DNA from: an uncultured Acidimicrobiaceae bacterium
GTDB lineage: Bacteria; Actinomycetota; Acidimicrobiia; Acidimicrobiales; Salinilacustritrichaceae
Length of the DNA: 64,000 nucleotides
Reading direction: 5' to 3'
Assembly (NCBI GenBank): GCA_963730345.1
Contig: CAVSRP010000037.1
Coordinates: forward strand, 46,038 to 110,037
The notes below the pieces were generated by a model. That model was not told where the DNA came from. It did not search any database and saw only the letters and a program-made list of their open reading frames with translations. Made by a program: the position numbers and the translations under genes. Positions 3,880-47,851 of this stretch are shown in pieces; the stretch's first letter is position 1; every line of letters begins with the position of its first letter.

Positions 3880-5023
3880 ACGTGGGGGTCCCCATGACGG
3901 AGTTGGCCACCGTGCGATTCTCAGAAGAGTCGAACCAACTGAGAAGGAGCCGCACGATGGCCACCAATGGTTCTGCCCTGTCCGCGCTCGCCGCACGTCT
4001 CGGCGAGGCCGATTCCAGATATGGAGTTGAAGATCCCCAAGCTCCGATCCGGTTCGTTCTTCCCGGAGTTGTTGAACGCGCCGGCGGATCAACAAGGCGT
4101 TGTGGGCGGTGGTCATGACCGCCTACATCACCGGCACCTCAACCCGGAAGGTCGACGATCTGGTCAAGGCCCTGGGCTGCGACTCCGGGATCTCGAAGTC
4201 CACGGTCTCCCGGATCTGCAAAGAGATCGACACCGACGTCGCCCTGCTCCGCAACCGTCGGCTCGACCACCAGGCGTTCGTGTACGTGTGGCTCGACGCC
4301 ACCTACGTTCATGTCCGCGACGGCGGCCAGGTCGTCTCCAAGGCGGTCGTGATCGCCACCGGTCTGCGAGCGGACGGGCACCATGAAGTGCTCGGCGTCG
4401 ATGTTGGCGATTCGGAGAACGAGACGTTCTGGACCGCGTACCTCCGCGACTCAGACCGCGGCCTCGATGGCATGCAGCTCGTCATCTCGGATGCCCACAC
4501 CGGACTGAAAGCTGCGATTCGCCGCGTCCTACAGGGGTCCGCGTGGCAACGATGCCGCGTGCACCCCATGCGGAATCTCATGTCGGTCGCCCATCATCAA
4601 CACCGCCAGATCATCGCCGCGTTGATCCGCACGATCTTCGCTCAACCCGACGCCACCTCGGCATCGACCCAGTTGCATTCGGTCGTCGACCAACTCCACG
4701 GCATCGCACCCGGTGTCGCGGAACGACTCGAGGCCATGGAAGCCGACCTGCTCGCCTACGCCGCGTTCCCGGCCGCGCACTGGTCCAAGATCTGGTCCAA
4801 CAACCCCATCGAGCGCCTCAACCGTGAGCTCAAACGGCGGACCGATGTCGTGCAGATCTTCCCCAACCCCGAATCGGTGATCCGCCTCGTTGGCGCGCTC
4901 CTCGTGGAGATGAACGACGAGATGATCGCCGCCGACCGCCGCTACATCGCTGAAGCCTCCGTCGCCGTCCTCCTCGAAGCTGACCGGGAGGTATCGTCGC
5001 TGCCCGCAGCACCCCAAACCTGA
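3880..5023 (+). pseudogene. IS256-family (Mutator-type) transposase remnant, 5'-truncated and frameshifted
   Basis: 4100..5023 encodes WAVVMTAYITGTSTRKVDDLV...VWLDATYVHVR...LVISDAHTGLKAAI...WQRCRVHPMRNL...SNNPIERLNRELKRRTDVV. The hallmark ELKIPKLRSGSFFPELL is in another frame (4021-4074). RRRRINKAL follows a TGA at 4073. The N-terminal ~60-70 aa of the family are missing. Confidence 0.85.
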
Positions 5024-5049
5024 CAACCGAATCGCACGGCAGACCTACA

Positions 5050-5730
5050 CCACGTCCTGGGACATGATGACGACGACGGGCGCGTTGTCCGGCTCCCTGT
5101 CGATCGTGGCGAGGACCTGGTGGGCCGGGCGAACCCGCATGTCAACCAGTTGGCTTCGCGCTTCCACGAGATCGACCCCGGCTGCGAAGCCCGAGGAACG
5201 CAGTTGCACGGCGTTGAGGACCGTGATCATCGCCGAGCAGCGACTCGACTCGCTCGACTCCGTGATAGACCGCATCGGCCACGACCTAATCCGTAGGCCC
5301 GTTGCAACTCACGTCGAGTGATCCGCTTGTCCAAGGAACTCGAGCGGGCCAAAGAAGCCGTGGAACGGGGCCCGAACCCTCGCCAAGATCCAGGGCGTGG
5401 TGGCCGGCATGTCGGCGGCGAAGACTTCGTCGCCGAGGTCGCGGGCGTCGGGCGTTTCAAGTCCCGGCGCACGTTGGCTCGCCGCCGACCGGCACAGCGC
5501 CGCTCCCTGTATCGTCTGTAGAACCAAGACCAGCATCGACCCCAGCCGGACCGGGACCCGCCCAACTCTAGATGCCGCCGTCCATCGCATCGCGCTCACC
5601 CAGCCCCACTACCACCCTGAAGCGATCGCCTACGTCGAACGAGAGGTCGAGAGCGGCGACAACGGCGAAGAACCGATGCAGTTCGCTCAAGATTCGCCTC
5701 CAACGTCATCTTCTTATCGAGCGATGATAA
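5050..5730 (+). pseudogene. IS110-family transposase remnant: middle and C-terminal (transposase_20-like) part only, with several frameshifts and in-frame stops
   Basis: Family-like pieces are scattered over the three plus frames: EDLVGRANPHVNQLASRFHEIDPG, FVAEVAGVGRFKSRRTLA, TGTAPLPVSS, LDAAVHRIALTQPHYHPEAIAYVEREVESG. It starts directly after the IS256 remnant. No N-terminal DEDD domain is seen. Confidence 0.65.
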
Positions 5731-6089
5731 CCGAGGCCTCGAGGCCGGCGCCCGGCGTTCACCACGTCAGCCAAGGTCAATCTCGTCGCCCACTTGACAT
5801 AGAGAGAGGGGGGCGGCATCTCAAAACCCGATGGAAGTGTCGACGGTCGTGTCGCAGGCTCGTTCGCTCGCCTTGCACCACGACTCGCCGCGCACCGACC
5901 GCGAGGCGTCCATGATCGGTTCCCACCGCCCACGAGGCCAAGCTCTGGCTCCTAGCTCAGAACGACCACATTCGAGTCTCCTCCGCTGGGAGAGACTCAT
6001 GGCCGATCTGCTCAGGTGGTCAGGACATCGCGAAAGGTGAACAGATGACGGGTCATGACCTCTCGACATCACATCACTGACGGGGACGA

Positions 6090-7622
6090 GTGCGTCGAGA
6101 AGGATCAAGCGATGCGGAAAGGGCTGAAGAAGCAGCGGAACGCGACCTCGCAGGCGAATCGATCGTCGGCACGCTCTGGTCCTGCTCCAGACCGTGGTCA
6201 TCAAGGTCAGCGGACTCACCGCCCAGATCGCGCTGGCGTATCTCCTCGTCCCCGGAGATTCGGGCTCATCGGCATCGCGTTGAGTATCACCGCGTTCGCC
6301 GACGTGCTGTACCAGAACAGCCTCGCCCAAGTCATCGTCCAGCGACGGGAGAATCTCGAGGAACGGGGCGCGTCGCTCTTCTGGCTCTCGATGGTGATGA
6401 GCGGCGTCGCGACCGTAGTGCTCATCGGCATCTCGCCTCTGATCGCGCGGATCTTCGATGCGCCTCGCGTCGCGCCGCTGATCGTCGTGCTCACATCGCC
6501 GTCCCCATGAACGGCGCCAGCGTCTTCCCGCGGTCTCGTCTATCGGCGACCTGCGTTTCCGTCGACTGGCCGCGATCAGCGGCGCGCAGTTCATGATCCA
6601 GAGCGTCACCTCGGTGGCCTTCGCAGCATGGGCCTCGGTGCCATGTCATTCGCCCTCGGCTACCCGATGTCCTCGCTGGCGGCGTGATCTGATATCCCAC
6701 CAGCGCCCCCCTATACGCCTCGTGGCGACCGCGCGTCGACTCGTCGCGACCGCTGGCCCAGGACACAGCCACGCTCGTCTCGACGAGCTGGCTGAACAAG
6801 GTCGTGGATTTCGGCGACTACTTCATCCTCGGCATCTTCGCCGACTCGACCGCCGTGGGTCTGTACTACTTCGCATTCCGACTGGCCGCCCAGACGGGAT
6901 CGATCGTGACCTCGAATGCAGCTCGGGTGCTCTTCCCGACCTTGCTGCAGGTTCCCTCGGGATCACGCCGGCAACACCGGTCCTTCATGCGAGCGGTACG
7001 CGTGCTCGCAGGGTTCGGGATCCCGCTCGCCATGATCTTTGTCGTCTACGGCGCCGACCTCCTGGCCGCGCTGTTCGACCCCCAGTGGAAGCAGGCCGCG
7101 CTCTTCGTGCAGGTCCTGAGCATTGCTTCGGCCACACGCACGGTGAGTGACAGCCACGCCAATCTGCTCAAGGCACAAGGTCGGTACCGAGAGTTGCTGC
7201 GCTGGAACATCGTTGGTACCGCGTGCTTTCTCGCCATCGTCACCCTCGGTGGCGCCGTCGACCAGGCAACCGGTGTGTGCGTCGCGGTGGTGATCCATGC
7301 CGTGGTGGGCGGTTGGATCGTCTACTACCTCACTGTGCGCCCATTCGGGAGTGACTTCTGGGAGTTCGGCCGGCTCGTCTCGGGCGCCCTGATCGCGTCG
7401 GCGTCGGTGGCGATCGCGTCGGTGCTGTTCATGCGCTTCACGCTGGGGTGGACCGAACCCAGCGCAGCCCGCCTGGTGCTGGGGTGTGCCCTGATGGGTG
7501 TGCTGTACCTACCCATACTCCACGTTGTCTCTCCTCCAACCAGCCGGGAGCTGCTCGAGGTCTCCCGCCGCGTCACCGGCCCGGTTTGGGTGAAGGTCCG
7601 ACGGGGCGTGGTGCCGAGGTAG
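6090..7622 (+). pseudogene. wzx: Wzx-like polysaccharide flippase (polysaccharide biosynthesis protein, MOP superfamily) broken by at least 6 frameshifts in its 5' half
   Basis: A continuous flippase-like sequence needs frame changes near 6180, 6260, 6493, 6531, 6630 and 6686. It reads ESIVGTLWS / LLQTVVIKVSGLTAQIALAYLLVPGD / FGLIGIALSITAFADVLYQ...PLIVVL / IAVPMNGASVFPR / DLRFRRLAAISGAQFMIQSVTSVAFAAW / GLGAMSFALGYPMSSLA / ...WLNKVVDFGDYFILGIFADSTAVGLYYFAFRLA. The last 272 codons (6804..7622) are open. Confidence 0.75.
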
Positions 7623-9017: not shown

Positions 9018-9990
9018 CGAATATCGCCCATCGCACGGGCCGTCCCAACGACGACAGCAGAGTCATCCGCTGGTTGAGTGCCGCCACGGTGACACCCGGT
9101 CGAACGACGAGCACCACGATGGCGGCTTCGGACAGAGAACCAGTGTCCCGAGGTGCGGCGAGTCGGAGCTCGACGACTCCGCCGGACCCGTTGGGCCACT
9201 CGGGGGGCAGTGGTTCGGCGTCGATGATGCCTTCGAGCAGCGCCTTGGCCCGAGCGACCTCGCCGTCGCCGACGGTCACGAACACCACGTGTCCTTGGTC
9301 CTCGGCCAGTCCGACCCAGCGTTCCGCGAGCGCTCGAGCCGCAGACACGAAATCGGCCACCACCGTGGTCGGGACGCGGTCGATCACCTCGAGTTCCTCG
9401 ACGGTGTCGATCCGGGGGTGGGCGCGTTCCCAGAACACCACGATCACCACGCCGAGCGCGAGCCCGAGGATGGCGCCGACCGCCACGACCAGCGTCGACG
9501 AACGCACGGCATCGAGGGCCGGATCGTCAACCCGGACGACCTCCAACGAGCCCGGGGCCACCAGCGTCGTCGCCGGCTTGATCGCGGCGGCCACGAACGC
9601 GTCCATCACCGCGGCCGCCTCGTCCTCGGACGGTGCTCCCGACACCGTAACCTCGATGATCGATGTTCCGTCCACCGACGCCGTCGAGATCTGGTCCTGA
9701 ATGGCGTCGACATCGGTTCCGGAAGCGACGGAGGTCGCCTGCAGGATCTGGCGGTCCTGCGACAACAGGCGAGCATAAGTGGTCGCGAGTCGACTCGAGT
9801 CGGTCGCCGAACCGGAGAACGATCCGTCGGTGGAGCCATCAAATGCCGGCACCACGAGCACGGCGGTGGAGTGCCACGTCGACTTTGCGCTGCTGCTCGC
9901 CGCTCCGGCCGCCATCATGGCGAGCACCACCGTCACCACGACGATCCACGCACGACGGTGGACGACGGCGATTACCTTGTTGAGAATCAC
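9010..9990 (-). CDS. Polysaccharide co-polymerase (Wzz-like chain-length determinant) with a degenerate BY-kinase-like C-terminal tail lacking a Walker A motif
   Basis: GTG at 9990 overlaps the upstream stop (GTGA). Two TM segments (AWIVVVTVVLAMMAAGAA; LVVAVGAILGLALGVVIVVFW) flank a ~170-aa extracytoplasmic domain. The tail has HVVFVTVGDGEV where the P-loop would be. Confidence 0.6.
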   Translation of the reverse strand: MILNKVIAVVHRRAWIVVVTVVLAMMAAGAASSSAKSTWHSTAVLVVPAFDGSTDGSFSGSATDSSRLATTYARLLSQDRQILQATSVASGTDVDAIQDQISTASVDGTSIIEVTVSGAPSEDEAAAVMDAFVAAAIKPATTLVAPGSLEVVRVDDPALDAVRSSTLVVAVGAILGLALGVVIVVFWERAHPRIDTVEELEVIDRVPTTVVADFVSAARALAERWVGLAEDQGHVVFVTVGDGEVARAKALLEGIIDAEPLPPEWPNGSGGVVELRLAAPRDTGSLSEAAIVVLVVRPGVTVAALNQRMTLLSSLGRPVRWAIFDG

Positions 9991-11000
9991 GCTTCGCCTC
10001 CGACCCGCAGCACGTCGTGCAGTTCCTCGAGTTGGAACAACCAACGCTCATGCTGGCGCGCCGAGGCCTCGGGCGCAGCGTCGAGCAGGGCATCGAGATC
10101 GGTGGAGACTCGTTCGAGACCGCGACGGACCCCGTCGACGTCGTTCGATACCAGCACGGCGTGCTCGAAGAGCAGGCGATTGACATCCTGATCGGTGGCT
10201 ATGAGCGGTCGGCCGGCGTAGACGGCCTCGTAGGCGGCCCGCATGACCGATGTCGGCTCCGTGGTCAGGGCGAGGACAGCGTCCGCGTCGTGTAGTGCCT
10301 GCTGGTAGGACAGTGGATCGAGGTAACCACAGAAGGTCACGTTGGGTGGCGCCTCCTCCACGAGGCCCGACGGTGCCCGGCGGAGATCGCCGGTGATGAT
10401 CACCTCGACGTTCGGCACCAGGGCGGCCGCCTGCAACACCGCGGCCACGGGCTCGTCCGGGCTGAAGACGCAAACGAACAACACCGTGATCGCCTTCGGG
10501 TCCCGATCCGGCGCCCAACCAAGCTCCCCGGGTCGTATGGTCGGGGGCGCCTCGTGCACCACGATGGCGCGGGCGTCCCAACCGCCGACGACCTGCTGCC
10601 ACTCGCTGGTGGTGACCATGGTCGCGGTCGCCCTCCGAGCGAGCCATCGGTGGATGGGGAGCAGGCGCTCCGACAGCCGATCGCCCTTCCGGCCGAAGGC
10701 TGACGGGTGGCTGTCGAGCACCAAAGGCGCGCCCGAGATGCGGCAGTACATCCACGCCACCAGTCCTGGGAAGACGGGCGGCAACGTCACGATCACCGAT
10801 CTCGGACGTCGGAGCACCAGGTAGACCAGGGTCTGCACGCTGCTCAACACGTAGCGCAGGGGGACCAGACGACGCGACGTGAGACGCCGGTCGTAGATCA
10901 CCTTCGCCTCCCCTCCCAGCGCGTGCGCGATCTCGGCCGAGCGACCGGGCACGAAGCTCCACGCCAGGAACGACACCGTTGGACGCCGCATCGGAGTCAC
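9987..11000 (-). CDS. Glycosyltransferase (GT-B fold, GT4-like)
   Basis: 337-aa ORF. The C-terminal half (VLFVCVFSPDEP...AVLALTTEPTSVMRAAYEAVYAGRPLIATD) resembles a retaining GT-B transferase. Operon context supports this. Confidence 0.65.
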   Translation of the reverse strand: MTPMRRPTVSFLAWSFVPGRSAEIAHALGGEAKVIYDRRLTSRRLVPLRYVLSSVQTLVYLVLRRPRSVIVTLPPVFPGLVAWMYCRISGAPLVLDSHPSAFGRKGDRLSERLLPIHRWLARRATATMVTTSEWQQVVGGWDARAIVVHEAPPTIRPGELGWAPDRDPKAITVLFVCVFSPDEPVAAVLQAAALVPNVEVIITGDLRRAPSGLVEEAPPNVTFCGYLDPLSYQQALHDADAVLALTTEPTSVMRAAYEAVYAGRPLIATDQDVNRLLFEHAVLVSNDVDGVRRGLERVSTDLDALLDAAPEASARQHERWLFQLEELHDVLRVGGEA

Positions 11001-11095
11001 GTCGGGCGGTCCACGGGCCCGGTACGGTCGGATCTCGGTTCGGGCGGAGTGGCCATCACCCCGTCATGTTCTCGCATGCCTGCGCCCATGTCCGG

Positions 11096-13339: not shown

Positions 13340-13345
13340 TAGCAT
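13340..13345 (+). promoter_or_regulatory. Candidate -10 element (TAGCAT) placed for a leaderless transcript of the 13352 gene
   Basis: A TANNNT hexamer ends 6 nt before the ATG at 13352. No Shine-Dalgarno sequence lies between them. Actinobacterial leaderless mRNAs typically show this geometry. Confidence 0.3.
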
Positions 13346-13351
13346 CGGCGC

Positions 13352-14260
13352 ATGCAGCTCCATCGTGTGTTCCCGGCGCTCAACAGGCGTCGAGGAGCCG
13401 TGGCGGCGGCTGTCGCTGCCATCGCGATGATGACAGCCGCGATCATCTTCTGGGCCGCTCGTACCGGACGTGACGATCTTCGCTTGTCCTGGGCGCCCCC
13501 GCGGTTGGAGGACCCGGTCACCATCTCGGTGCCGGTCCGCGGCGGCCAGTTCGAGCTCGACCCCGGTCGGGACTACCAGGTCGTGCTGGCCCGGGCTCCT
13601 GTCACCGGCGCGGTGTCCCTCGTCGGGGGACACAATGTCGTCCTGGTCGGTGGTGAGCTCGACTTCGATGGTGGCGCGCCCGGGGTGCTCTATTTCAAGA
13701 ACTTCACCGGCACGCTCCACGTCGAGGGCCTGCGCATCGACCCCGGCGGTTCCCGCGGCATCGAGGCCGACGCGATCCGGGTCGCCTCCACAGCCGACGG
13801 GTCGACGGCCCAGTTCGAGAACATCTACGTCCGGCGCGTCGGTGGTTCGTACGACGGTGTTCACGGCGACCTCATCCAGACATGGGGCGGCCCGTCCCGT
13901 CTGCGGGTGGATCGCTTCACCGGGTACTCCGACTACCAAGGTCTCTACCTCGCCCCGAACGATGCGGACTGGCACGCCCGCGTCGTGGCCATGGAATTCC
14001 GCAACATGGATCTGCACGGTGTCGACGACGGGACCTTCAACATGCTCTACGACATCTCGGGCCGGGGTGGCGAGCCACCCACGCCGGTGCAGCACAACCT
14101 CTGGGCTGCGGTCGACCACGGGTCGAAGATCGCCAACGAACAGTGGTCGATCGGCAGCGTCGACGGGATCCGCCGGGGCGACGCGAATGGCAAACCGGGC
14201 GCCCAGTTCGTCGATCCGAGCACGGTTGGCATCGGCTACCGAAGCCCCGGATACCGCTGA
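13352..14260 (+). CDS. Membrane-anchored or secreted protein made almost entirely of the same ~255-aa domain found at the C-terminus of the 1704..3548 product (beta-helix-like, possibly polysaccharide-active)
   Basis: N-terminal hydrophobic segment AVAAAVAAIAMMTAAIIFWAA. Motifs shared with the paralog: LSWAPP, GRDYQVV, VVLVGGE, TGTLHVEGL, LRVDRFTGYSDYQGLY, GIGYRSPGYR. Confidence 0.7.
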   Translation: MQLHRVFPALNRRRGAVAAAVAAIAMMTAAIIFWAARTGRDDLRLSWAPPRLEDPVTISVPVRGGQFELDPGRDYQVVLARAPVTGAVSLVGGHNVVLVGGELDFDGGAPGVLYFKNFTGTLHVEGLRIDPGGSRGIEADAIRVASTADGSTAQFENIYVRRVGGSYDGVHGDLIQTWGGPSRLRVDRFTGYSDYQGLYLAPNDADWHARVVAMEFRNMDLHGVDDGTFNMLYDISGRGGEPPTPVQHNLWAAVDHGSKIANEQWSIGSVDGIRRGDANGKPGAQFVDPSTVGIGYRSPGYR

Positions 14261-14276
14261 AGCGTCGGCCTGATCA

Positions 14277-17245
14277 CGAGAGTCGGACGACCGAGAGCCC
14301 CTGGATCTGCGGGTTCTGGACCTGGGTCACGAACCCCAACGACAACACCCCATCCGACACCGTCACATCGAAGCTCTGATCGAACGCCGCATTCGCCCCC
14401 ACCGCCGCCACCGCATCCAGATCCCGCAACACCGGCGAACCCTCGGCATCCACCCCGAACACCCGCTGCCCCGAAGCCGTGAAATAGATCTCCGCGATCC
14501 GCAACGTCACCCGATACGTCCCCGCCGCCGGCACCGGCACCGCATACCCCGACATCGAATAACGCTGCGACCGATACAACCCGTCATCAGCCGTCCCCGA
14601 GATGTTCACCGACGACGCCGAATACGTCTTCCCACCCACGAAGTACTGATCCGCACCCCACACCTGCCCCGCCGAATCCGTGAACGACGACGACGACCCC
14701 GCATTGATCCGCACCACGAAACCCGACGGCGGCGGCAACGGCGCCATGGTCAGATCCGCGGTCACCGACCCCCCCGCCGTCACCGACACCCCCACCGGCG
14801 ACGACGACGAGAACCCCGACGCCGACGCCACCACCTGATACGAACCCGCCTCGACGGAAATCACGTACGACCCATCAGGACTGGTCGTCGTCGACGTCCC
14901 ACACGCCTCCGACGTCGGACACACCTGCACCGTCGCCCCCGGCAACCGATCACCTCAGGACTGGTCGTCGTCGACGTCCCACACGCCTCCGACGTCGGAC
15001 ACACCTGCACCGTCGCCCCCGCAACCGGATCACCCGACGACGACGACACCGTGCCGAGCACGGAACCAGGAGCCGGCGGTGGCGTCGTGTCGAGCTGCAC
15101 CACCGAGAGCCCCTGGATCTGCGGGTTCTGGACCTGGGTCACGAACCCCAACGACAACACCCCATCCGACACCGTCACATCGAAGCTCTGATCGAACGCC
15201 GCATTCGCCCCCACCGCCGCCACCGCATCCAGATCCCGCAACACCGGCGAACCCTCGGCATCCACCCCGAACACCCGCTGCCCCGAAGCCGTGAAATAGA
15301 TCTCCGCGATCCGCAACGTCACCCGATACGTCCCCGCCGCCGGCACCGGCACCGCATACCCCGACATCGAATAACGCTGCGACCGATACAACCCGTCATC
15401 AGCCGTCCCCGAGATGTTCACCGACGACGCCGAATACGTCTTCCCACCCACGAAGTACTGATCCGCACCCCACACCTGCCCCGCCGAATCCGTGAACGAC
15501 GACGACGACCCCGCATTGATCCGCACCACGAAACCCGACGGCGGCGGCAACGGCGCCATGGTCAGATCCGCGGTCACCGACCCCCCCGCCGTCACCGACA
15601 CCCCCACCGGCGACGACGACGAGAACCCCGACGCCGACGCCACCACCTGATACGAACCCGCCTCGACGGAAATCACGTACGACCCATCAGGACTGGTCGT
15701 CGTCGACGTCCCACACGCCTCCGACGTCGGACACACCTGCACCGTCGCCCCCGCAACCGGATCACCCGACGACGACGACACCGTGCCGAGCACGGAACCA
15801 GGAGCCGGCGGTGGCGTCGTGTCGAGCTGCACCACCGAGAGCCCCTGGATCTGCGGGTTCTGGACCTGGGTCACGAACCCCAACGACAACACCCCATCCG
15901 ACACCGTCACATCGAAGCTCTGATCGAACGCCGCATTCGCCCCCACCGCCGCCACCGCATCCAGATCCCGCAACACCGGCGAACCCTCGGCATCCACCCC
16001 GAACACCCGCTGCCCCGAAGCCGTGAAATAGATCTCCGCGATCCGCAACGTCACCCGATACGTCCCCGCCGCCGGCACCGGCACCGCATACCCCGACATC
16101 GAATAACGCTGCGACCGATACAACCCGTCATCAGCCGTCCCCGAGATGTTCACCGACGACGCCGAATACGTCTTCCCACCCACGAAGTACTGATCCGCAC
16201 CCCACACCTGCCCCGCCGAATCCGTGAACGACGACGACGACCCCGCATTGATCCGCACCACGAAACCCGACGGCGGCGGCAACGGCGCCATGGTCAGATC
16301 CGCGGTCACCGACCCCCCCGCCGTCACCGACACCCCCACCGGCGACGACGACGAGAACCCCGACGCCGACGCCACCACCTGATACGAACCCGCCTCGACG
16401 GAAATCACGTACGACCCATCAGGACTGGTCGTCGTCGACGTCCCACACGCCTCCGACGTCGGACACACCTGCACCGTCGCCCCCGCAACCGGATCACCCG
16501 ACGACGACGACACCGTGCCGAGCACGGAACCAGGAGCCGGCGGTGGCGTCGTGTCGAGCTGCACCACCGAGAGCCCCTGGATCTGCGGGTTCTGGACCTG
16601 GGTCACGAACCCCAACGACAACACCCCATCCGACACCGTCACATCGAAGCTCTGATCGAACGCCGCATTCGCCCCCACCGCCGCCACCGCATCCAGATCC
16701 CGCAACACCGGCGAACCCTCGGCATCCACCCCGAACACCCGCTGCCCCGAAGCCGTGAAATAGATCTCCGCGATCCGCATCGTCACCCGATACGTCCCCG
16801 CCGCCGGCACCGGCACCGCATACCCCGACATCGAATAACGCTGCGACCGATACAACCCGTCATCAGCCGTCCCCGAGATGTTCACCGACGACGCCGAATA
16901 CGTCTTCCCACCCACGAAGTACTGATCCGCACCCCACACCTGCCCCGCCGAATCCGTGAACGACGACGACGACCCCGCATTGATCCGCACCACGAAACCC
17001 GACGGCGGCGGCAACGGCGCCATGGTCAGATCCGCGGTCACCGACCCCCCCACCGTCACCGACACCCCCACCGGCGACGACGACGAGAACCCCGACGCCG
17101 ACGCCACCACCTGATACGAACCCGCCTCGACGGAAATCACGTACGACCCATCAGGACTGGTCGTCGTCGACGTCCCACACGCCTCCGACGTCGGACACAC
17201 CTGCACCGTCGCCCCCGCAACCGGATCACCCGACGACGACGACAC
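14277..17245. repeat. Tandem array of four near-identical 732-bp (244-codon) coding cassettes
   Basis: Identical shadow ORFs at 15079, 15811 and 16543 give a period of 732 bp. The copies differ only at 16780 (t vs a; Met/Leu) and 17052 (a vs g; Val/Ala), plus the array ends. Confidence 0.95.
14875..15034. repeat. 80-bp direct tandem duplication inside the last cassette
   Basis: 14875-14954 and 14955-15034 are copies that differ only in ggcaaccgatcacc vs gcaaccggatcacc. 80 is not a multiple of 3, so the frame shifts and a stop appears at 14861. Confidence 0.9.
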
Positions 17246-19429
17246 CACCCCCGACACCGTCCCCGGCGCGATGTACGGACCTGACACCGTCCGACCCCAC
17301 AGCGATACCGGACGCGGGTACCACTCGCCGTTCTGCAGCCCCTGGGTGTCGAAGATCATCGACTCGAACGTCCCGCTGCGCAGACCGTCCGAGCGTGAGC
17401 CCCAGACCTCCACGAGTTTCGGCGCGTCGGGGACCCAGGTCGACCACGTCGGGTGGTTCTTGTGGATCCAGGCCCCGACCACGTCACCGTCGAATGCCTT
17501 CGACACCCATGTCACCTGGTCGACGCTGGAGACGGGCGTGACGCAACTCGAACAACCCCGCTGCGCCGCGACCTGGTTGGCGCGAAGAGCGCTGTTGAGC
17601 CAGGACAGATTGGCATCTAGGACCGCGTTGCTGCCGAGCAGGGCGGCGTAGAGCAGCGAGTCGCCCAGTGCGCCCGGAGCGGCGGTGGCCCCGCTGAGCG
17701 ACGTGTCCTCGTTGACCTGGTTGATGAACGGATGGACGGCCGTCAGGTGGCGCTGGGCCAGCGTGGCGTAGCTCGGGCCGCTGGACGGGGTCTTGCCTCG
17801 CGCGCCCGCGATCGACAGGACGACGCCGATCTTGGTGGTGAGGACGGTGTGTCCCGCCTCGACCTGGTGAGCGGCCCTGGTCGCACCGTCATAGGTCGTG
17901 CCCAGGTTCGAGGTGCGGCACGCGCCGCCGTTCGGGAGACATGCCGTCATCGACGTGACGTCGAGCGTGCCGTCGGCATCCACGTCGTGGGCTTCGATCG
18001 CAGCCAGCATCCGCCGGATGAAGGCGTCGTCGTAGGTCTGGCCGGTTCGCTGCTCCCACAACATCGCCATCGCCACGACGTCGATGTCCTCCTCAGCGGC
18101 CATGTGTCGCCGATCGCCCGGCTTCAGGTCATAGGCCTGGCCGGCGGTGAGCAGTGTGGTCTTGCCGAGATCGTGGAGGATGTACTGGTTCCCATCACCG
18201 TCGACCTCGTAGTGCGCCTTCCACTGGTCGAGCTCGAGCTTGGACTTCCATGGCTCGAACTCGGTCTGGAACGGATGCACCTCGTAGGCGACGTCGACGG
18301 TCGACAGGTAGCCGAAGCCGCCCTCCGTGATGGTCCAGAACGGGTCACCACCCGGAGTCCGGGTGAGCTTGCCGTTGTGGCGGTAGCCGTGGACCGCTCG
18401 CGCCGCCGACCAGCGGGTGGGACCGTCGCTAGCGACATCGGCGGTTCGGCTGTCGAACGCCGAGGATGCGGCGAACGCGGTGGTCTCGGAGGTAATGGCG
18501 GCATCGAGCATGGCGACGGCGTTGGCCCACCAGCCGAGGTAATAGAACGGCATCGCCTGCCCGCTGACCGAGGTGAGGGGTGCCTGCGTGTTCCAGGCGC
18601 CGTAGACGAGCGTGGTGCTCCAGCTCTCCCCCACCGCGAGGGACGGTATGGCGTAGGCGACGCCACCCTGGCCGCTGCTCGCCGACGAGTCGAGGTCACC
18701 GTCGGCCGCGAAGTCGCTGGTGAGGTTGTTGCCGCTCCCGAAGGTTGCACCGGCCGTCGGGGCCGCGAGGTACCGAGTCCCGCCGTGGTCACCGGAATTG
18801 CAGTAGCGAAGTGTCCGATATCCAGCCCGGGGGCTGCTGGTGATGTCGGGCCCGCATCTCGACCCAAGGGCCAGCATGAACGCGGACGCGGACGACGCCG
18901 AGGTCCCGGTGTTCTCGACGAAGAGCCGCAGGTACATGAAGGGGCCGTTGGAGAGCTTCGACTCCACGGAGTCGACGGTGGTGCTCGGGGCGAGCGGATC
19001 GGTGACCTGGAAGGTGAACCGCAAGGCCCCGCCGCGCTCCCTGGACGAGCGTCGAGGTGGGTGTGACCCCGACGCGTGCTCCGTCGAGAACGGGAGTCGA
19101 GCCCGCGGTGGGGGGAAGCTTCCCGGTCGTCCCGTCCGCGGTGTGCACGAGTGCCGTGAAGCCGGCATCGGTGCCCCGTTCGCCGGCGCTGTAGTCGTGA
19201 GCCGCCGAGGACACCACCGACGACGCGCCGAAGTTGAAGTTGAGATCGAGTGCGTGATCGCCGTTCTCGATCGAGTCGGTGACCGGGTCGTTGAGCCACT
19301 GGTCGGGGACCATCGGCGCTGCTCCGGGCGTTGCCGCAACGGGTGTCGCCGACGCGAGCGTGAGTCCCGCCGCGCTCAGCGCGACCACGACCGTTGCTCG
19401 AACAAATCGCGCGAAGGCGGGCGATCCGG

Positions 19430-20380
19430 TCATGGGGCGCCGGCTCTCACTGCCGGCTTGACCCGCGCTCCGTGGTCGGTCCACCAGGACTTGACTCGGT
19501 CGAATCCGACCTCGAGGTCATAGAAGGCCAGGTAGCAGAGGACGAGACCGAGGAAGCTGATGTCGAGGAGCACCAACGTCCCGAGGTGGAAGCTGACCAT
19601 GACGGCCAGGTAGATGTCGCGGATCCGACCCCGGAAGAACAGCAGCGGCGACAGCGCTTCGGTCAGCACTGTGACCGCGGACATCGCCTCGATGATGCCC
19701 GGGTGGCGGGCGACGCTCAGACCGAGAGACTGCTGCTTCTCGATGAGAACCTCGTTCAGGGCGCCGCTGTGGATCCAGCCGAGGCCCTGGGCGCGCAATT
19801 TCGAATAGGCCGCGAACGCGTAGGCGCAGACGACGACGACCATGACGAGTCGCAACGCCCAGCCGGCGAGCACGTCGCGCGGTTCCGACTCGGCGCCGGC
19901 GTCGTCATCGGTGGGCCCTCGCTTGTTCCGGCGGCGGAGGTCGTCGATCGAGTACGCGGCACCTGCTGGTGCGACGGCAAGTGCGAACAGCGAGAGCACG
20001 ATGGGGACCCGTCCGTGCTCGATGGCGTGGAACGAGTAGAAGGTGCCGAACCAGTAGGTGTACAAGATCGCCGACACCCACAGGGAGACACGGGTCCAGA
20101 GACCGATCAGGGCACAGGCCAGGGCCACGATGAGGACACCGCGGACGATGGTGGTGGCCCCGGGTCCGAGGCGGGGTACCTGCAGGATCCGGAAGAGCAG
20201 GATCGGCTGGTGGAACGCCGCGTCGACGCGTGAGAAGCGACTCATGTAGGACGACACGAACGCGATGTCGATCAGCGCGTAGGCCGTGAGCACGATGCGG
20301 AACAGCGACAACCGGCGAACCGGCACCGCCGGGAACCAGAACTGCTGCCACCGATCGACGACCGCGTTCACTCCGCCCAC
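19430..20380 (-). CDS. HTTM-domain (vitamin K-dependent gamma-carboxylase-like / SdpB-like) polytopic membrane protein
   Basis: The N-terminus DRWQQFWFPAVPVRRLSLFRIVLTAYALIDI is the typical HTTM start. There are about 8 hydrophobic segments. The stop overlaps the giant gene start (ATGA at 19430-19433). Confidence 0.7.
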   Translation of the reverse strand: MGGVNAVVDRWQQFWFPAVPVRRLSLFRIVLTAYALIDIAFVSSYMSRFSRVDAAFHQPILLFRILQVPRLGPGATTIVRGVLIVALACALIGLWTRVSLWVSAILYTYWFGTFYSFHAIEHGRVPIVLSLFALAVAPAGAAYSIDDLRRRNKRGPTDDDAGAESEPRDVLAGWALRLVMVVVVCAYAFAAYSKLRAQGLGWIHSGALNEVLIEKQQSLGLSVARHPGIIEAMSAVTVLTEALSPLLFFRGRIRDIYLAVMVSFHLGTLVLLDISFLGLVLCYLAFYDLEVGFDRVKSWWTDHGARVKPAVRAGAP

Positions 20381-20880
20381 CTCGCGACTTCCACGACCTG
20401 CACGTCGTCATCGGGGTCGAGCGGAAGTTGGCGGTAGACGAGCACGGCTCGCACCGCGTCCTGATCATTCCAGCCCTCCCACGCGCTGACGAGCTCACTC
20501 ATCCGCTCGTCGATCTTGCGTCGAGGGTGACCGTTGCGGTCGGCCACCTCGCCGGTCATGAACACGACGTACTGGTGTCGCGTCAGGCCGAAATCGTGCG
20601 CACCGGCGACGAACTCCTTGCCGCTGACCGTGGTCACGATCAGTTGCGGATCGACGGTGAAGGTCCGCTCCTCCCGGAACATCGGGAAACCGGGAACCGG
20701 CCATGTTCCGTTGCGGAGCGTGAGACCTGATCCCAACTGAACGACCACGATGGCCACCGTGACGAGTGACACCACACCGATCACCCATCGAGGATGGGGC
20801 AGGGGAGTTGCGGGCTCAGCCGGACGCTCGTCGACGTCGGCTCGCCCCCCTCTGCTGACCAACGCTCGTGCTCGCGCCAT
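20368..20880 (-). CDS. Small membrane-anchored protein of unknown function, first gene of the HTTM operon
   Basis: ATG at 20880 (MARARALV...). There is one TM segment (WVIGVVSLVTVAIVVVQL) followed by a ~125-aa soluble domain. It overlaps the HTTM start by 13 nt. The track ORF extension to 21039 is Arg-rich and unlikely. Confidence 0.55.
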   Translation of the reverse strand: MARARALVSRGGRADVDERPAEPATPLPHPRWVIGVVSLVTVAIVVVQLGSGLTLRNGTWPVPGFPMFREERTFTVDPQLIVTTVSGKEFVAGAHDFGLTRHQYVVFMTGEVADRNGHPRRKIDERMSELVSAWEGWNDQDAVRAVLVYRQLPLDPDDDVQVVEVARWAE

Positions 20881-21080
20881 CGTCCCCGTCTCCGCCACTC
20901 CGTTTCCGGTTTCCTGCCCCTTCCACGATGGCAAAGTCGCGAGGCTCTTCGGTCCGAATGGCGGCATTTCATGGCCTCTGCACGCGCGTCGTCGTCGCCG
21001 CGAAGGGTGGGCGCCACTCACCGGAGGCAAGGACGCCACCTCCCCTACGGAACGTGACGCGCGTCTGATGACGAGATCGC

Positions 21081-22310
21081 TCAGGCCGACCGACGCTGGT
21101 TCAACACAAGCACGTTGTCGTGGAGGATCTTGCGCTGGTCAGCGGCCGCCAGGTGCTCGACCTCGGGCACGTACTGGAGCGGCTCGGGCAGCGCCTCGAT
21201 GTGGGGCCAGTCGCTGCCGAAGAGCACCCGGTCGACGCCCATGTTGTCGACCACCTCGTCGATCTGGTCCTCCCAGAACGGGTTGATCCAGATGTGCCGG
21301 CGAAACGTCTCGACCGGATCCTCGGGGAACCACCCGTTCATCTTGCGGGCGACGACCCGCAGGCGGCCGAAGAGCCCACGCAGGTAGGTGCTGCCGTTCT
21401 CGACGCTGGCGACGCGCAGGTTGGGGAACCGGTGGAACAGGTTGTCGCCCACCAGCGCGGCGAGGAAGTCCTCGATGGGGCGCTCGAGCTGGAGCATCCG
21501 GATGGGCTGGGGCACGCCGCTGAAGTCGGTGGTGAAGCCGTCGCGGGCGTAGCCATGGCTGGTGTACCCGGCGTCGCCGGCGTGGACCACGACGGTCACC
21601 CCGGCTTCGTTCGCCCGGGCCCAGAACGGGTCGAACATCGGATCGGTGGGTGGCTTCTGCCCGGCGAGCGTGGTCGGAGCGGCCGGGCGCATGACGATGG
21701 TGCGAGCATCGTGGTCGAGCGCCCACTCCAGCTCCCGACAGGCCCAGTCGACGTCGACGAGCGGGATGTACGGGCCGGCGAAGATGCGGTCGCGGTAGGC
21801 GAAGCCCCAGTCCTCCTCCAGCCACCGGTTGAACGCGGTGAACAGCAGGGTGACGGCCTCGGGGTCGTGGTGGAGCGGCTCCTCGTAGATCATGCCCAGG
21901 GTGGGGAACAGCCACACCGCGCCGACGCCTTGCGCATCCATGGTGGCCAACCGGGCGTCGCGGTCCCGGTACTCCGGCCGGATGGGCTCGTGCCGGCCGA
22001 GGAGCTCGAGCGGGTTGTCACCGTTGGGGTTGCCGCGGAAGTAGTCGGCGAGCACCCCGGGGAACGCCACCGGGTCGAACGTGGCGTTCTTGACCCCGCG
22101 GAAGACCTTCCCGCCGAGCACCGGGTACGTGCGGCCCTCGATCTGGGCCCACTGGAACACCCGGGTCGCGTGGCGGGGGTCGAGGTGGCGGCTGAAGGCA
22201 TCGAGCGCCTCGTAGTAGTGGTTGTCGGCGTCGAAGGGTCGGTACCCCAAGGCGTCGACCGCCTGCGCCGCGTCACCTGGGCCAGCCTCGGTCATGACCA
22301 TGTCTGACAT
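21081..22310 (-). CDS. Amidohydrolase-2 family metal-dependent hydrolase (PF04909-like)
   Basis: FDADNHYYE near the N-terminus and VLFGSDWPH near the C-terminus. ATG at 22310 (MSDMVMTE). The longer track ORF overlaps the ligase gene. Confidence 0.8.
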   Translation of the reverse strand: MSDMVMTEAGPGDAAQAVDALGYRPFDADNHYYEALDAFSRHLDPRHATRVFQWAQIEGRTYPVLGGKVFRGVKNATFDPVAFPGVLADYFRGNPNGDNPLELLGRHEPIRPEYRDRDARLATMDAQGVGAVWLFPTLGMIYEEPLHHDPEAVTLLFTAFNRWLEEDWGFAYRDRIFAGPYIPLVDVDWACRELEWALDHDARTIVMRPAAPTTLAGQKPPTDPMFDPFWARANEAGVTVVVHAGDAGYTSHGYARDGFTTDFSGVPQPIRMLQLERPIEDFLAALVGDNLFHRFPNLRVASVENGSTYLRGLFGRLRVVARKMNGWFPEDPVETFRRHIWINPFWEDQIDEVVDNMGVDRVLFGSDWPHIEALPEPLQYVPEVEHLAAADQRKILHDNVLVLNQRRSA

Positions 22311-46084: not shown

Positions 46085-47851
46085 CTAGCTGCTCGGGCTC
46101 TTCACCGGTAGCGGATCGAAGTCCGGCGGCTTCGTGCCGTCCGGATCCTCGGCGTAGATGCCGCTCGCACCGGCGGGATCGAAGGCCTTGAACTCCTCCT
46201 CCGGCCACTCGTTGGCGTAGTACCGCTTGCCACCGTCGACGTACATCCAGAGCCCGTCGCCCTCCTGGAAGATCTCGTCCTTGCCTTGGGCCGTGGGGTC
46301 CCACCAGATCTTCGCCACGTCGTCGATGCCGGCGTAGTCGGGCCCGGGGATGTCGGGCCAGTAGCCGTGGTCACCCCACGACAGGTCGTACTGCTGCACG
46401 CCGCGGGCCGGCGGCTCGTAGGCGAAGAGCGCCTTGGTGAACGAGTCGTGAGTCAGGTTCGGACCGACCCCCTGCAACACGTTGAAGAACAGGTTCGGCG
46501 TCGGGACCAGCACCTCCAGCGTGCCATCGGCCTTCGTCTTCTCGCCGTAGAACCACTGGTAGAGCTCGTACGAGCTGAAGACGTCGGGATCAACCCGGGC
46601 CGCCAGGGCGGTCAGGCCGAAGGCGTGGGCCCACTGCTCCTGGTCGTAGGTGCGGGCGAACACGTTGGTGTCGATCAGCGTCGACAGATTGAGGAACCAC
46701 TCGGGGTGGTAGTCCTGCGCCGTGGCCTCCTTGGTGAAGTCCCGGGGCGCAATCGGGTCACCGGCGAAGATCACCGTCGTGACCCCGGCTTCCTTCAGCT
46801 TGGCGATGGCGCTGGCCGCCGTCTCCTGCAACGTGGCCGGGTCGAGGGTGTACGGCACCATCGCCGCCAGCTCGACACCCCGGTCAGCCAGGGCCTGCTT
46901 GTAGTCCTCGGCGCTCTTGGCCGAGTCATCGGAGCTCTCGAGGTAGAGGTAGCCGAACACCCGGTCCTGGCTCTGCATCGCCGGATCGCCGGCGTAGGCG
47001 GCCTTGCGGCCCGCCACCTGCTTCACCAGGGCCTCGACGTTGTGCTCCCGGGCCTGCACGTTGGTCAGCGCCGTACCGGCGATGCCGAGGCCGTCCCGGG
47101 CGGCCAGCTTCTCGTGCGTCGGCGTGAGCCCGCAGCTGATGCACTGGATGCCCCGTGCCGTCAGTTCGTCGCCGAAGGCCGTGGTCAGCGCCGGACCACC
47201 CCAGACCTGGAACGGCTTCATGTCCTCGGCGATCTGGACCGCATCGGCTCGGGCGGTGACGGCGTCGCTGGCGATTCCCTTGGACTCGTAGTACTCGATG
47301 TCGATCTGGCGTCCGTAGGTCTCGTAGTACGTCTCGAGCATGTCGACCCAGTGGGTGATGGCATCCTCTGCGTCCGCATTGGTGTCGTCGACCTTGATGG
47401 CATCGGTGATGTAGTTGATGATCGGATCGTCGTCCGGACCGAGGTAGACCACGATCTTGATGCTGTCCGCGGTGACGCCCTGTTCGGTGGCGCCGCCGTT
47501 GTCCCCCTCGAACGGCAGGTAGCACTCGGCCGCGAAGTAGCTGGGGATGGCCACCTGCCCCCGGCTGGTGTCACACCGGTCGCCCCACTCGAGGTCACCG
47601 GCCGTCCCGGCGGCCTCGGCCGCGCTGAAGCTGAGGGGATAGGTGACCTCCCCCGGGGCCGCGGTCGTTCCCGACGAGTCGGTGGTGGAGCTGGTGGTCT
47701 CATCGGTCGCGGTGTTCGCGTCGTTGTTGTCGTTCCCCCCGATGAGCACGACAGCGGCGATGACCGCGATCACCACGACGATGGCGCCGATCGGCCCCCA
47801 CCGTCGCAGTGCGTTGCTGCCTTCGTTCGGTTGGTCACTGGCTGGTTGCAT
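46085..47851 (-). CDS. Large ABC-transporter substrate-binding protein (type-1 periplasmic-binding fold, Liv-like), TM-anchored with a Ser/Thr linker
   Basis: ATG at 47851 (MQPASDQ...). TM anchor IGAIVVVIAVIAAVVLIG is followed by a TSSTTDSSGTT linker. It lies last in the operon with the Liv-type permease and ATPase genes. 588 aa. Confidence 0.65.
   Translation of the reverse strand: MQPASDQPNEGSNALRRWGPIGAIVVVIAVIAAVVLIGGNDNNDANTATDETTSSTTDSSGTTAAPGEVTYPLSFSAAEAAGTAGDLEWGDRCDTSRGQVAIPSYFAAECYLPFEGDNGGATEQGVTADSIKIVVYLGPDDDPIINYITDAIKVDDTNADAEDAITHWVDMLETYYETYGRQIDIEYYESKGIASDAVTARADAVQIAEDMKPFQVWGGPALTTAFGDELTARGIQCISCGLTPTHEKLAARDGLGIAGTALTNVQAREHNVEALVKQVAGRKAAYAGDPAMQSQDRVFGYLYLESSDDSAKSAEDYKQALADRGVELAAMVPYTLDPATLQETAASAIAKLKEAGVTTVIFAGDPIAPRDFTKEATAQDYHPEWFLNLSTLIDTNVFARTYDQEQWAHAFGLTALAARVDPDVFSSYELYQWFYGEKTKADGTLEVLVPTPNLFFNVLQGVGPNLTHDSFTKALFAYEPPARGVQQYDLSWGDHGYWPDIPGPDYAGIDDVAKIWWDPTAQGKDEIFQEGDGLWMYVDGGKRYYANEWPEEEFKAFDPAGASGIYAEDPDGTKPPDFDPLPVKSPSS

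Follow-up and report, generated by a model that had tools for sequence, protein, structure and literature searches.

A recent tandem amplification of a CarboxypepD_reg and malectin cassette in the gene of a predicted secreted GH52-like glycosidase from an uncultured Acidimicrobiales bacterium

Results and Discussion

Analysis of a 64,000-nucleotide stretch of contig (hereafter the window) from the metagenome-assembled genome (MAG) of a soil-type actinobacterium of the Acidimicrobiales identified a tandem array of 732-bp units that encodes the C-terminal half of a predicted secreted GH52-like glycosidase, the product of a 1,692-codon gene. The array is a real and recent tandem amplification that is ordinary in kind. 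Our preferred interpretation, to which we give a probability of roughly 0.6, is that a 244-codon cassette was amplified very recently at the 3′ end of this glycosidase gene within a Wzx/Wzy-type polysaccharide locus of an uncultured Acidimicrobiales lineage. Coordinates of the features described below are collected in Table 1.

Table 1. Features of the glycosidase gene, its tandem array and the adjoining genes (window positions).
Feature	Position	Strand	Remarks
Whole gene: signal peptide, GH52-like glycosidase, 4 x (CarboxypepD_reg + malectin)	14274..19433	-	Split over three frames in the assembled sequence
Start codon and Sec-type signal peptide (MTGSPAFARFVRATVVVALSAAGLTLASATPVAA)	19332..19433	-	Signal peptide judged by eye
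+1 frameshift site	19030..19033	-	One extra base in or beside the GGGG run of GGCGGGGCCTTG; residues 1-134 cut from the remainder
GH52-like catalytic region: N-terminal beta-sandwich and helical domain	17300..19300	-	Pfam PF03512
Unit 1 (nearest N-terminus)	16515..17246	-	CarboxypepD_reg ~17021-17260, malectin ~16601-16993; holds both substitutions (16780, 17052)
Unit 2	15783..16514	-	CarboxypepD_reg 16289-16528, malectin 15869-16261; Pfam residues 938-1017 and 1027-1157 of ORF 14861-19339
Unit 3	15051..15782	-	Identical to unit 2
Unit 4	14290..15050	-	CarboxypepD_reg split by the 80-bp duplication; malectin ~14325-14717 in a different frame
Extra 80-bp copy	14875..14954	-	Canonical copy at 14955-15034
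HTTM-like membrane protein	19430..20380	-	53% identical (E 5e-100) to the HTTM gene adjoining homologue P0003; translationally coupled to the glycosidase gene
Small conserved protein, first of three-gene module	20368..20967	-	34% identical (E 1e-21) to its counterpart in locus L007; exact protein also on contig_88209

Organization of the tandem array

The array consists of direct repeats at window positions 14290–17246 on the minus strand and comprises 3.93 units of 732 bp (2,877 bp) plus an 80-bp duplication, where each unit of 244 codons encodes a CarboxypepD_reg beta-sandwich, a malectin (CBM57-type) module and a Pro-rich linker. The value of 3.93 in place of 4.0 reflects the lack of the Pro-rich linker in the last unit, which ends in ...VVRLS* with its stop at 14274–14276. 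A previous sequence-only reading of this DNA had described four almost identical cassettes with a period of exactly 732 bp. The direct-repeat array and the core offset of 732 both stand, but the 80-bp duplication produces a real start-to-start spacing of 812/732/732 and breaks the reading frame, such that the present assembly has three intact in-frame cassettes.

Identity between the cassettes was 99.7–100%, and a chance origin of 732-bp units at this identity is impossible. At offset 732, the copies of the array core differ at 16048/16780 and 16320/17052 only, in agreement with the two substitutions (16780 and 17052) reported by the sequence-only reading. Both are non-synonymous (Leu/Met and Ala/Val) and are located in the unit nearest the N-terminus, and with only two substitutions an analysis of dN/dS between copies is impossible. 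Copy identity may be overstated, as long-read polishing can remove genuine differences where units are near-identical. The peptides quoted in the earlier reading are present in the array, although the coding strand, which it had missed, is the minus strand. Plus-strand shadow ORFs of 71 aa each were found at 15079, 15811 and 16543 as it had listed them, and were rejected as real genes since the GC3 signal sits on the minus-strand frames.

Pfam searches, which the earlier reading had put forward as a check, matched both of its proposed domains once per unit. Malectin (PF11721) was detected in three stretches of the long ORF (14861–19339; 1492 aa) with 278.8 bits (cutoff 23; E 1.9e-83) and in one stretch of a 223-aa ORF (14274–14945) with 97.7 bits (E 9.4e-28). 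CarboxypepD_reg (PF13620) scored 164.6 bits (cutoff 32.3; E 6.8e-49) in four stretches, one for each unit, and a partial fifth match in the 223-aa ORF corresponds to what follows the duplication in cassette 4. Used as a profile, the malectin part matched the solved animal malectin 2k46 (E 3.6e-32; chain residues 9–148), and a single cassette sequence matched the solved malectin 2jwp (E 4.6e-13). Ligand-contact residues of Xenopus malectin are Y67, Y89, Y116, F117 and D186 (PMC7783096). The Y, Y, Y and F residues of the cassette motifs GGKTY, SQRY and AEIYF align to Y67, Y89, Y116 and F117 at an offset of 23 taken from the alignment, with D186 outside the aligned region. Structure prediction for one cassette without an alignment gave an unusable model (pLDDT 40.8).

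The GH52-like catalytic region and the reconstructed gene

Two edits to the assembled sequence, the removal of 1 nt at 19030–19033 and of one 80-bp copy, were sufficient to produce the single 1,692-codon ORF with no other stop, and a GC3 frame plot showed that the coding signal carries on unchanged past both lesions. This gene starts with an ATG at 19433 that shares bases with the TGA ending the upstream HTTM-like gene (ATGA). Inspection of the corrected protein, which ends in ...QGLSVVRLS*, identified no LPXTG motif, membrane anchor or wall-attachment signal.

The catalytic region matched its Pfam family with 41.4 bits (cutoff 25; E 1.2e-10), the match covering only positions 92–347 of the 413-position profile. 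Searches recovered 22 homologues of 700–760 aa at about 51% identity, all with PF03512, which is the precomputed assignment of all 21 full-length homologues, and the family profile matched the GH52 xylosidase 4c1o (E 2.2e-7). The nucleophile Glu335 of XynB2 (8qme) aligns to the Glu of 'ITEGGF' (E370), which does not vary among 13 family members. Against GH52 structures, the profile alignments end before the region of Asp D495, the catalytic acid/base of XynB2, and the invariant D515 in 'TTYDG' is a candidate for this role. A model of the glycosidase domain from 21 homologues was of low confidence (pLDDT 49.2), and a Foldseek search with it returned GH52 (E 1.8e-6) and GH116 structures as top matches at TM-scores of only 0.25–0.3, a result that weakly supports a GH52-like fold.

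Frame-breaking lesions and comparison with a second assembly

The 80-bp internal tandem duplication (14875–14954 and 14955–15034) lies in the unit nearest the C-terminus and was detected by TRF and confirmed by direct comparison. Because its 80 bp are not divisible by 3, the long ORF stops at 14861, and the remainder of unit 4 is found in another frame, in the 223-aa ORF. A second public assembly, contig_88209 (ENA; locus L013), covers the same island, and the two assemblies may have reads in common. Logan located a matching contig in run ERR11594398, possibly one of the runs behind ENA ERZ25039549. The duplication is absent from contig_88209, where positions 1–587 correspond to window 15541..14955 and the alignment then resumes at 14874, and a 395-aa ORF on this contig reads through to the stop codon. 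We judge the duplication somewhat more likely than not to be either a local error of assembly or consensus or a variant present in a minority.

The extra and canonical 80-bp copies differ by two compensating 1-nt indels no further than 13 nt from the junction, and the duplication ends show no microhomology. This has the look of consensus stitching and is consistent with an assembly artefact in which the unit number, the near-perfect identity, or both were made by long-read assembly or polishing. A dense-error patch in each assembly (window 5001–7000; contig_88209 over 19225–15543) and the observation that contig_88209 opens and closes within the array point in the same direction, and the warning of the earlier reading that assemblers handle such regions poorly was well founded in this respect. 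Nevertheless, an artefactual unit number or identity appears unlikely, as the array measures exactly 2,877 nt (3.93 units) in each assembly, and the two substitutions of unit 1 together with the distinct array edges indicate that the units are not mere assembler copies. An array of ~3 kb would also be short beside typical long reads, if such reads were used.

At the +1 site, homologues read gap-free as ...TPTSTLVEGxxAGLKLTxQV..., and taking out one G restores this spacing. The length of the site is identical in contig_88209, and three inter-assembly substitutions lie 1–4 nt away. The odds that the +1 site is a genuine lesion and the odds that it is an error are, in our estimate, even. Exact-protein look-ups for P0023, P0027, the HTTM-like ORF, the GT2 protein and the 214-aa N-terminal fragment returned no record, and no third assembly spans the lesions.

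Other genes of the window place these lesions in context. The wzx flippase gene of this island is spread across three or more frames in the window, and on contig_88209 it is an intact 505-aa gene. With the duplication missing and wzx intact on contig_88209, at least some of the window lesions are assembly-specific. Lesions in this island differ by assembly: the 80-bp duplication and a shattered wzx in the window, and a shattered glycosidase gene in contig_88209. Housekeeping genes in the remainder of the window are full length, which indicates that the assembly is not frameshift-ridden in general. Window-wide frameshift noise was considered and rejected, as the candidate split genes elsewhere were separate, complete genes.

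The split wzx in combination with insertion sequence fragments in the same island makes real decay possible. The glycosidase gene may accordingly be read as a young pseudogene within a polysaccharide island that is decaying and invaded by IS elements. On this reading the array is real but a secreted enzyme would no longer be made, since the +1 shift detaches the signal peptide and cassette 4 ends early at the 80-bp duplication. Two independent frame-breaking lesions within one gene, a +1 site common to both assemblies, the split wzx of the window, a Mutator/IS256 transposase fragment at 4076–5023, an IS110-type gene in the corresponding region of contig_88209, and the clustering of frameshifts in the island beside intact flanking housekeeping genes are all in keeping with decay. 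However, contig_88209 has neither the duplication nor a broken wzx, the 1,692 codons contain no further stops with GC3 the same after each lesion, and the inter-assembly consensus differences that crowd the +1 site suggest a trouble spot for base calling. Weighing both sides, we hold a pseudogene to be a possible but doubtful outcome. The gene as assembled is interrupted twice, probably at least once by assembly error, and our estimate leans slightly towards a gene that is intact in vivo.

Gene neighbourhood

A conserved three-gene module (small protein, HTTM, GH52-like), with the glycosidase gene in third place, lies inside the Wzx/Wzy-type polysaccharide locus of this Acidimicrobiales MAG. 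Two alternative junctions exist at 21096, one with an amidohydrolase and one with a photolyase fragment. The stop/start overlap of the HTTM and GH52-like genes is repeated in four homologous loci (L007, L009, L010 and L011). A literature search for HTTM, exopolysaccharide and glycoside hydrolase together returned no reports. The sequence-only reading had overlooked the 80-bp duplication, the +1 at 19030–19033 and the position of the cassettes as the tail of a GH52-like gene within a conserved module and polysaccharide locus. This uncharacterised module is of interest for actinobacterial surface-polysaccharide loci in its own right, and the lesions provide a caution for the annotation of long-read MAGs, as assembly-specific lesions would be mis-scored as pseudogenes.

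Proposed mechanism and significance

Under our preferred interpretation of a very young cassette amplification, unequal homologous recombination between 732-bp units, or slippage during replication, would multiply the cassette, and the same process would keep its copies homogeneous. Four putative sugar-binding modules in series may then provide multivalent (avidity) binding, with avidity as the presumed selective benefit. Such binding could hold the catalytic domain on, or target it to, a polysaccharide whose most plausible source is the surrounding locus, and the glycosidase may trim or remodel this polysaccharide as its presumed substrate. Should the gene prove intact in vivo, this would represent a clean natural example of a carbohydrate-active enzyme that gains binding valency in one step through amplification of a spacer-plus-CBM cassette.

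A further extension of this model is that the cassette array acts as a fast-varying 'valency dial' on a polysaccharide-trimming enzyme, with the ~26.9-kb island present in the population as a circle or tandem amplification and with the G-run and 80-bp duplication as on/off variants. We consider this extension very improbable. If true, this uncultured lineage of Acidimicrobiales would be able to switch the number of its cassettes as well as the dosage of the island, and the length variation would be Periscope-like while acting on the sugar-binding modules of a secreted enzyme instead of an adhesin stalk.

Comparison with known systems

No close cassette relatives for a comparison of copy number were found in 5.8 billion proteins, GTDB genomes and JGI metagenomes, where the best outside matches were at most 46% identical. 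The earlier reading had suggested that copy number probably varies; contig_88209, the one further assembly, has the same unit count. The cassette matched 12,281 cluster representatives, and most of the top ones possess 3–8 malectin modules. Among the top 149 of these 12,281 matches, only P0055 (JGI metagenome 3300086396; locus L006) combined a GH52-like domain with the cassette, and it is the nearest relative of the same design with a GH52-like domain followed by two CarboxypepD_reg and malectin pairs. P0055 shares the domain order, signal peptide and HTTM neighbour of the window gene and is 47% identical to it over 1,095 residues, although its locus has a different gene order with HTTM downstream. 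Between its two cassettes, identity is 61% (aa) and 68% (DNA), compared with 99.7–100% for the four cassettes of the window. This divergence indicates that the window array is a recent expansion, in line with the earlier proposal of very recent amplification or gene conversion. P0055 is older, its two cassettes have diverged, and it can be compared directly with the window gene for valency gain.

Giant multi-malectin proteins showed a similar pattern, as 7 of the 148 examined by phmmer domain extraction have internal malectin pairs at least 98% identical, demonstrating that the phenomenon recurs. P0032 and the six others resemble the window gene in their near-identical tandem malectin cassettes of ~245 aa, but their partner domain is Ig/PKD-like and not CarboxypepD_reg, and they have no GH52-like domain.

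Periscope Proteins (SasG/Aap, Rib, Sgo_0707 and others) contain long, highly identical tandem whole-domain repeats whose origin and variation are attributed to intragenic recombination (PMC8201768). The window array is comparable in its tandem whole domains of very high DNA identity (732 bp, 99.7–100%), and its short Pro-rich linkers complete what is a hallmark of Periscope Proteins in the same report (PMC8201768). The repeats could therefore be read mainly as a spacer of variable length, holding the enzyme away from the cell surface, and not as sugar binders, and CarboxypepD_reg is a beta-sandwich of the type occurring in such stalks. This alternative seems highly unlikely to us, since the corrected protein has no cell-wall anchor signal, the repeats follow the functional domain and do not lie between it and an anchor, four of the five malectin ligand-contact residues align to the same residues in the cassette, and no length variation between strains was seen. 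The repeats resemble ligand-binding modules.

In their catalytic domain, GH52 beta-xylosidases (Geobacillus XynB2; 4c1o, 4rhh, 8qme; clan GH-O with GH116) are the known enzymes that compare with the window protein in PF03512 match, aligned nucleophile and top fold matches, although only ~120–260 residues align at 13–16% identity. GH52 enzymes are cytoplasmic and act on xylo-oligosaccharides, while the window protein is predicted to be secreted and is encoded in a polysaccharide-biosynthesis locus.

For overall architecture, the gut GH2 beta-glucuronidases and galactosidases (6ed1, 5uj6, 6d50, 8dhl) also have a C-terminal malectin-fold module after a catalytic glycosidase domain. The cassette profile matched GH2 chains with solved C-terminal malectin-like domains at E 1e-15 to 1e-13 (1e-15 to 1e-14 for 6ed1 and 5uj6). 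In comparison to these malectin-bearing GH2 enzymes, the window gene has a GH52-like catalytic domain, and its malectin module is paired with CarboxypepD_reg and present in four copies at ~100% DNA identity.

Anatomy of the repeat array

The peptides quoted in the sequence-only reading of this region are encoded on the minus strand, where a head-to-tail direct repeat comprises 2,877 nt of array (3.93 units) and 80 nt extra. Comparison of positions 14955-16514 with their partners at an offset of 732 bp gave mismatches at 16048/16780 and 16320/17052 only, exactly the two substitutions (16780 and 17052) that had been named; both are non-silent (Leu/Met and Ala/Val) and belong to the 5'-most unit relative to the gene. 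The reported shadow ORFs at 15079, 15811 and 16543 are present on the plus strand (71 aa each), and the proposed exact 732-bp period held for two spacings and failed for one, as start-to-start distances were 812, 732 and 732 bp. Tandem amplification of the cassette itself is regarded as demonstrated. Tandem Repeats Finder and direct comparison identified an 80-bp tandem duplication, whose lower-coordinate copy differs from the canonical sequence at two 1-nt indels that compensate each other (GGCAACC-GATCACC versus G-CAACCGGATCACC) located exactly at the junction; no microhomology was seen at its ends. Every cassette also contains an 18-bp micro-repeat (~2.3 copies) encoding GVSVT(A/V)GGSVTA, within which substitution 17052 falls.

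Coordinates of features in the window
Feature	Position	Strand	Remarks
Mutator/IS256-family transposase	4076-5023	+	N-terminally truncated (profile positions 96-378 of 379)
Mutator/IS256-family transposase, second interval	~5129-5611
Polysacc_synt_3 wzx flippase	~6100-7620	+	three frames
GT1/GT4-type glycosyltransferase gene	9987-11063		near glycosidase gene
~300-codon gene	13343-14260	+	strong coding signal
Rest of cassette 4	14274-14945	-	separate ORF, different frame
Direct repeat	14290-17246
18-bp micro-repeats	14756-14797, 15568-15609, 16300-16341, 17037-17081
Long ORF	14861-19339	-	1,492 aa; three complete cassettes after an N-terminal region of 690 residues
80-bp duplication	14875-14954 and 14955-15034
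GGGG run (+1 site)	19030-19033
Conserved three-gene module	19430-21039	-	recurs in actinobacterial Wzx/Wzy polysaccharide loci, frequently with sulfotransferases
MFS/ABC frame	47835-50837	-	1,000 codons

Reading frame and second assembly

The long ORF enters the 80-bp duplication, changes frame and terminates at 14861. Third-position GC tracks the frame changes of the glycosidase gene, indicating an unbroken coding signal across the lesion. The ATG at 19433, which overlaps the stop codon of the upstream gene (ATGA), starts a typical signal peptide in a frame differing from that of the long ORF. Homologues read uninterrupted across this frame-change point (...TPTSTLVEGxxAGLKLTxQV...), and removal of one G from the GGGG run regained their spacing; when one 80-bp copy was also removed, a single 1,692-codon ORF with no other stop was obtained. 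The ~300-codon gene converges on the glycosidase gene with stop codons 13 bp apart; it gave no Pfam match, and its position is taken by a GT2 gene in homologous loci.

Fragments from ENA ERZ25039549 contig_88209 share a 90% cluster with proteins encoded in the window. This contig is a 26,854-bp circular permutation of the polysaccharide island that begins at window 15541, runs to window 1, continues through 5.8 kb beyond the window's left end (hexapeptide transferase, DegT, GFO_IDH, DUF4012 and a 67-aa photolyase fragment) and returns from window 21096 to 15543. Its end and start are contiguous inside a cassette, minus one base, and a 395-aa ORF spans from its start to the stop codon. The expected length of 21,096 - 80 + 5,844 = 26,860 bp, compared with the 26,854 bp observed, indicates that the array of contig_88209 is likewise 2,877 nt long and free of the 80-bp duplication. 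The number of units is corroborated by this contig, though the reads of the two assemblies are possibly not independent. The most probable origin of the 80-bp duplication is an error in assembly or consensus, or a minority variant. Distortion of copy number or identity by the assembly is considered unlikely. Outside two patches (5001-7000 and 19225-15543) the assemblies are essentially identical. The first differs by 181 substitutions and 75 indels, with no differences in the flanking 8 kb; the flippase broken in the window is complete in contig_88209, at 505 aa. This patch is due either to a failure of the local consensus or to a divergent copy. The second differs by 64 substitutions and 28 indels, with the glycosidase shattered in contig_88209 and continuous in the window.

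The +1 site is of equal length in both assemblies, with three inter-assembly substitutions 1-4 nt away, and housekeeping genes outside the island are full length in the window. That the gene recently became a pseudogene within an island undergoing decay, with at least one lesion real and inactivating, is a possible but tentative reading, to be set beside the coding signal that persists across the lesion.

Contig_88209 joins window 21096, four codons ahead of a shared stop (RRSA*), to a photolyase N-terminal fragment, where the window has an amidohydrolase gene instead. The closed sequence is compatible with an island that is tandemly duplicated or circular, or with a chimeric join in one of the two assemblies; neither an integrase nor a replication gene was seen. 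This circularly closed 26.9-kb version is the more unusual by-product of our analysis. The part matching the transposase region of the window also carries an IS110-type (Transposase_20) gene.

Domain composition

Pfam assigned one Malectin (PF11721, E 1.9e-83) and one CarboxypepD_reg (PF13620, E 6.8e-49) domain to each unit, and an N-terminal Glyco_hydro_52 domain (PF03512, 41.4 bits; cutoff 25). A single-sequence query with the malectin part matched solved animal malectin at E 4.6e-13; a 20-sequence profile reached E 3.6e-32 over almost the entire domain and also matched bacterial GH2 enzymes whose solved structures carry malectin-like sugar-binding domains at the C-terminus. Disaccharide-contacting residues of Xenopus malectin include Y67, Y89, Y116, F117 and D186 (PMC7783096); the first four aligned to Y, Y, Y and F of the cassette (GGKTY, SQRY, AEIYF), and D186 lies outside the alignment. 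The GH52-like domain has 22 homologues (~51% identity, 700-760 aa), all without cassettes. Their family profile matched GH52 beta-xylosidase structures at just E 2e-7 over ~120 residues, with nucleophile E335 aligned to an invariant Glu. AlphaFold models were of low confidence, and the best structure matches of the GH model were GH52, then GH116, with poor TM-scores.

Genomic context

The LepA encoded in the window shares no more than 93% identity with any database protein; the named matches are Acidimicrobiales MAGs. The glycosidase neighbourhood is a Wzx/Wzy-type surface-polysaccharide locus with Bac_transf/GT4, two GT2, Wzz-like, wzx flippase and transposase-fragment genes. Upstream of the glycosidase lie an HTTM-like membrane-protein gene, 53% identical to that adjoining the homologous protein P0003, and a small-protein gene 34% identical to its counterpart in a homologous locus. 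This trio, with overlapping HTTM stop and GH52-like start, also occurs in four homologous loci (L007, L009, L010, L011), embedded in polysaccharide clusters with GT2s, sulfotransferases, Wzy and Bac_transf. From this recurrence we read the enzyme as a conserved polysaccharide-pathway component, extended by the cassette array in this lineage; our literature search found no papers tying HTTM to such loci. Other exopolysaccharide loci encode hydrolases, and by analogy the enzyme may trim or remodel the polysaccharide. Elsewhere in the window, the MFS/ABC frame joins an MFS transporter domain (residues 30-375) to two branched-chain amino-acid-type ABC ATPase domains, and represents an unusual fusion or else two genes that share an uninterrupted frame.

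Age of the array and comparison with known systems

An exhaustive HMMER scan recovered 12,281 cassette-related cluster representatives; most of the best ones are giant proteins that carry 3-8 malectin modules each. Among these best relatives only P0055, from JGI metagenome 3300086396, shares the overall design of signal peptide, GH52-like domain, cassettes and HTTM neighbour. Its two cassettes, 52-54% identical to the window cassette, share 61% (aa) and 68% (DNA) identity, in contrast to 99.7-100% among the four in the window. This difference indicates that the array was recently expanded or homogenised in this lineage, in agreement with the recent amplification or gene conversion originally proposed.

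We favour, at a probability of about 0.6, a gene encoding a secreted polysaccharide-associated glycosidase whose C-terminal tail recently expanded to four spacer and CBM cassettes for multivalent glycan binding. Unequal recombination or slippage would have multiplied the cassettes, and four in the tail could bind a glycan multivalently. The pseudogene, assembly and spacer alternatives could each coexist with the amplification itself.

Near-identical malectin arrays are not unique to this protein: among 148 top multi-malectin proteins, module pairs were at least 98% identical in 7 and at least 90% identical in 18, and one example, the multi-malectin protein P0032, has four near-identical ~246-aa cassettes. 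High-identity whole-domain arrays with recombinational instability have previously been described as Periscope Proteins (PMC8201768). Assignment to that group was dropped, as the window protein has no anchor and carries its repeats distal to the functional domain, and a Periscope-like spacer role for the repeats is, despite their similarly high identity, very improbable. Already known are the domains themselves, their use as sugar-binding appendages of glycosidases in bacteria, proteins with several malectin modules, and tandem domain arrays of near-identical units. For the combination of a GH52-like domain with four identical CarboxypepD_reg and malectin cassettes in an HTTM-linked module, the databases searched contain a single diverged relative.
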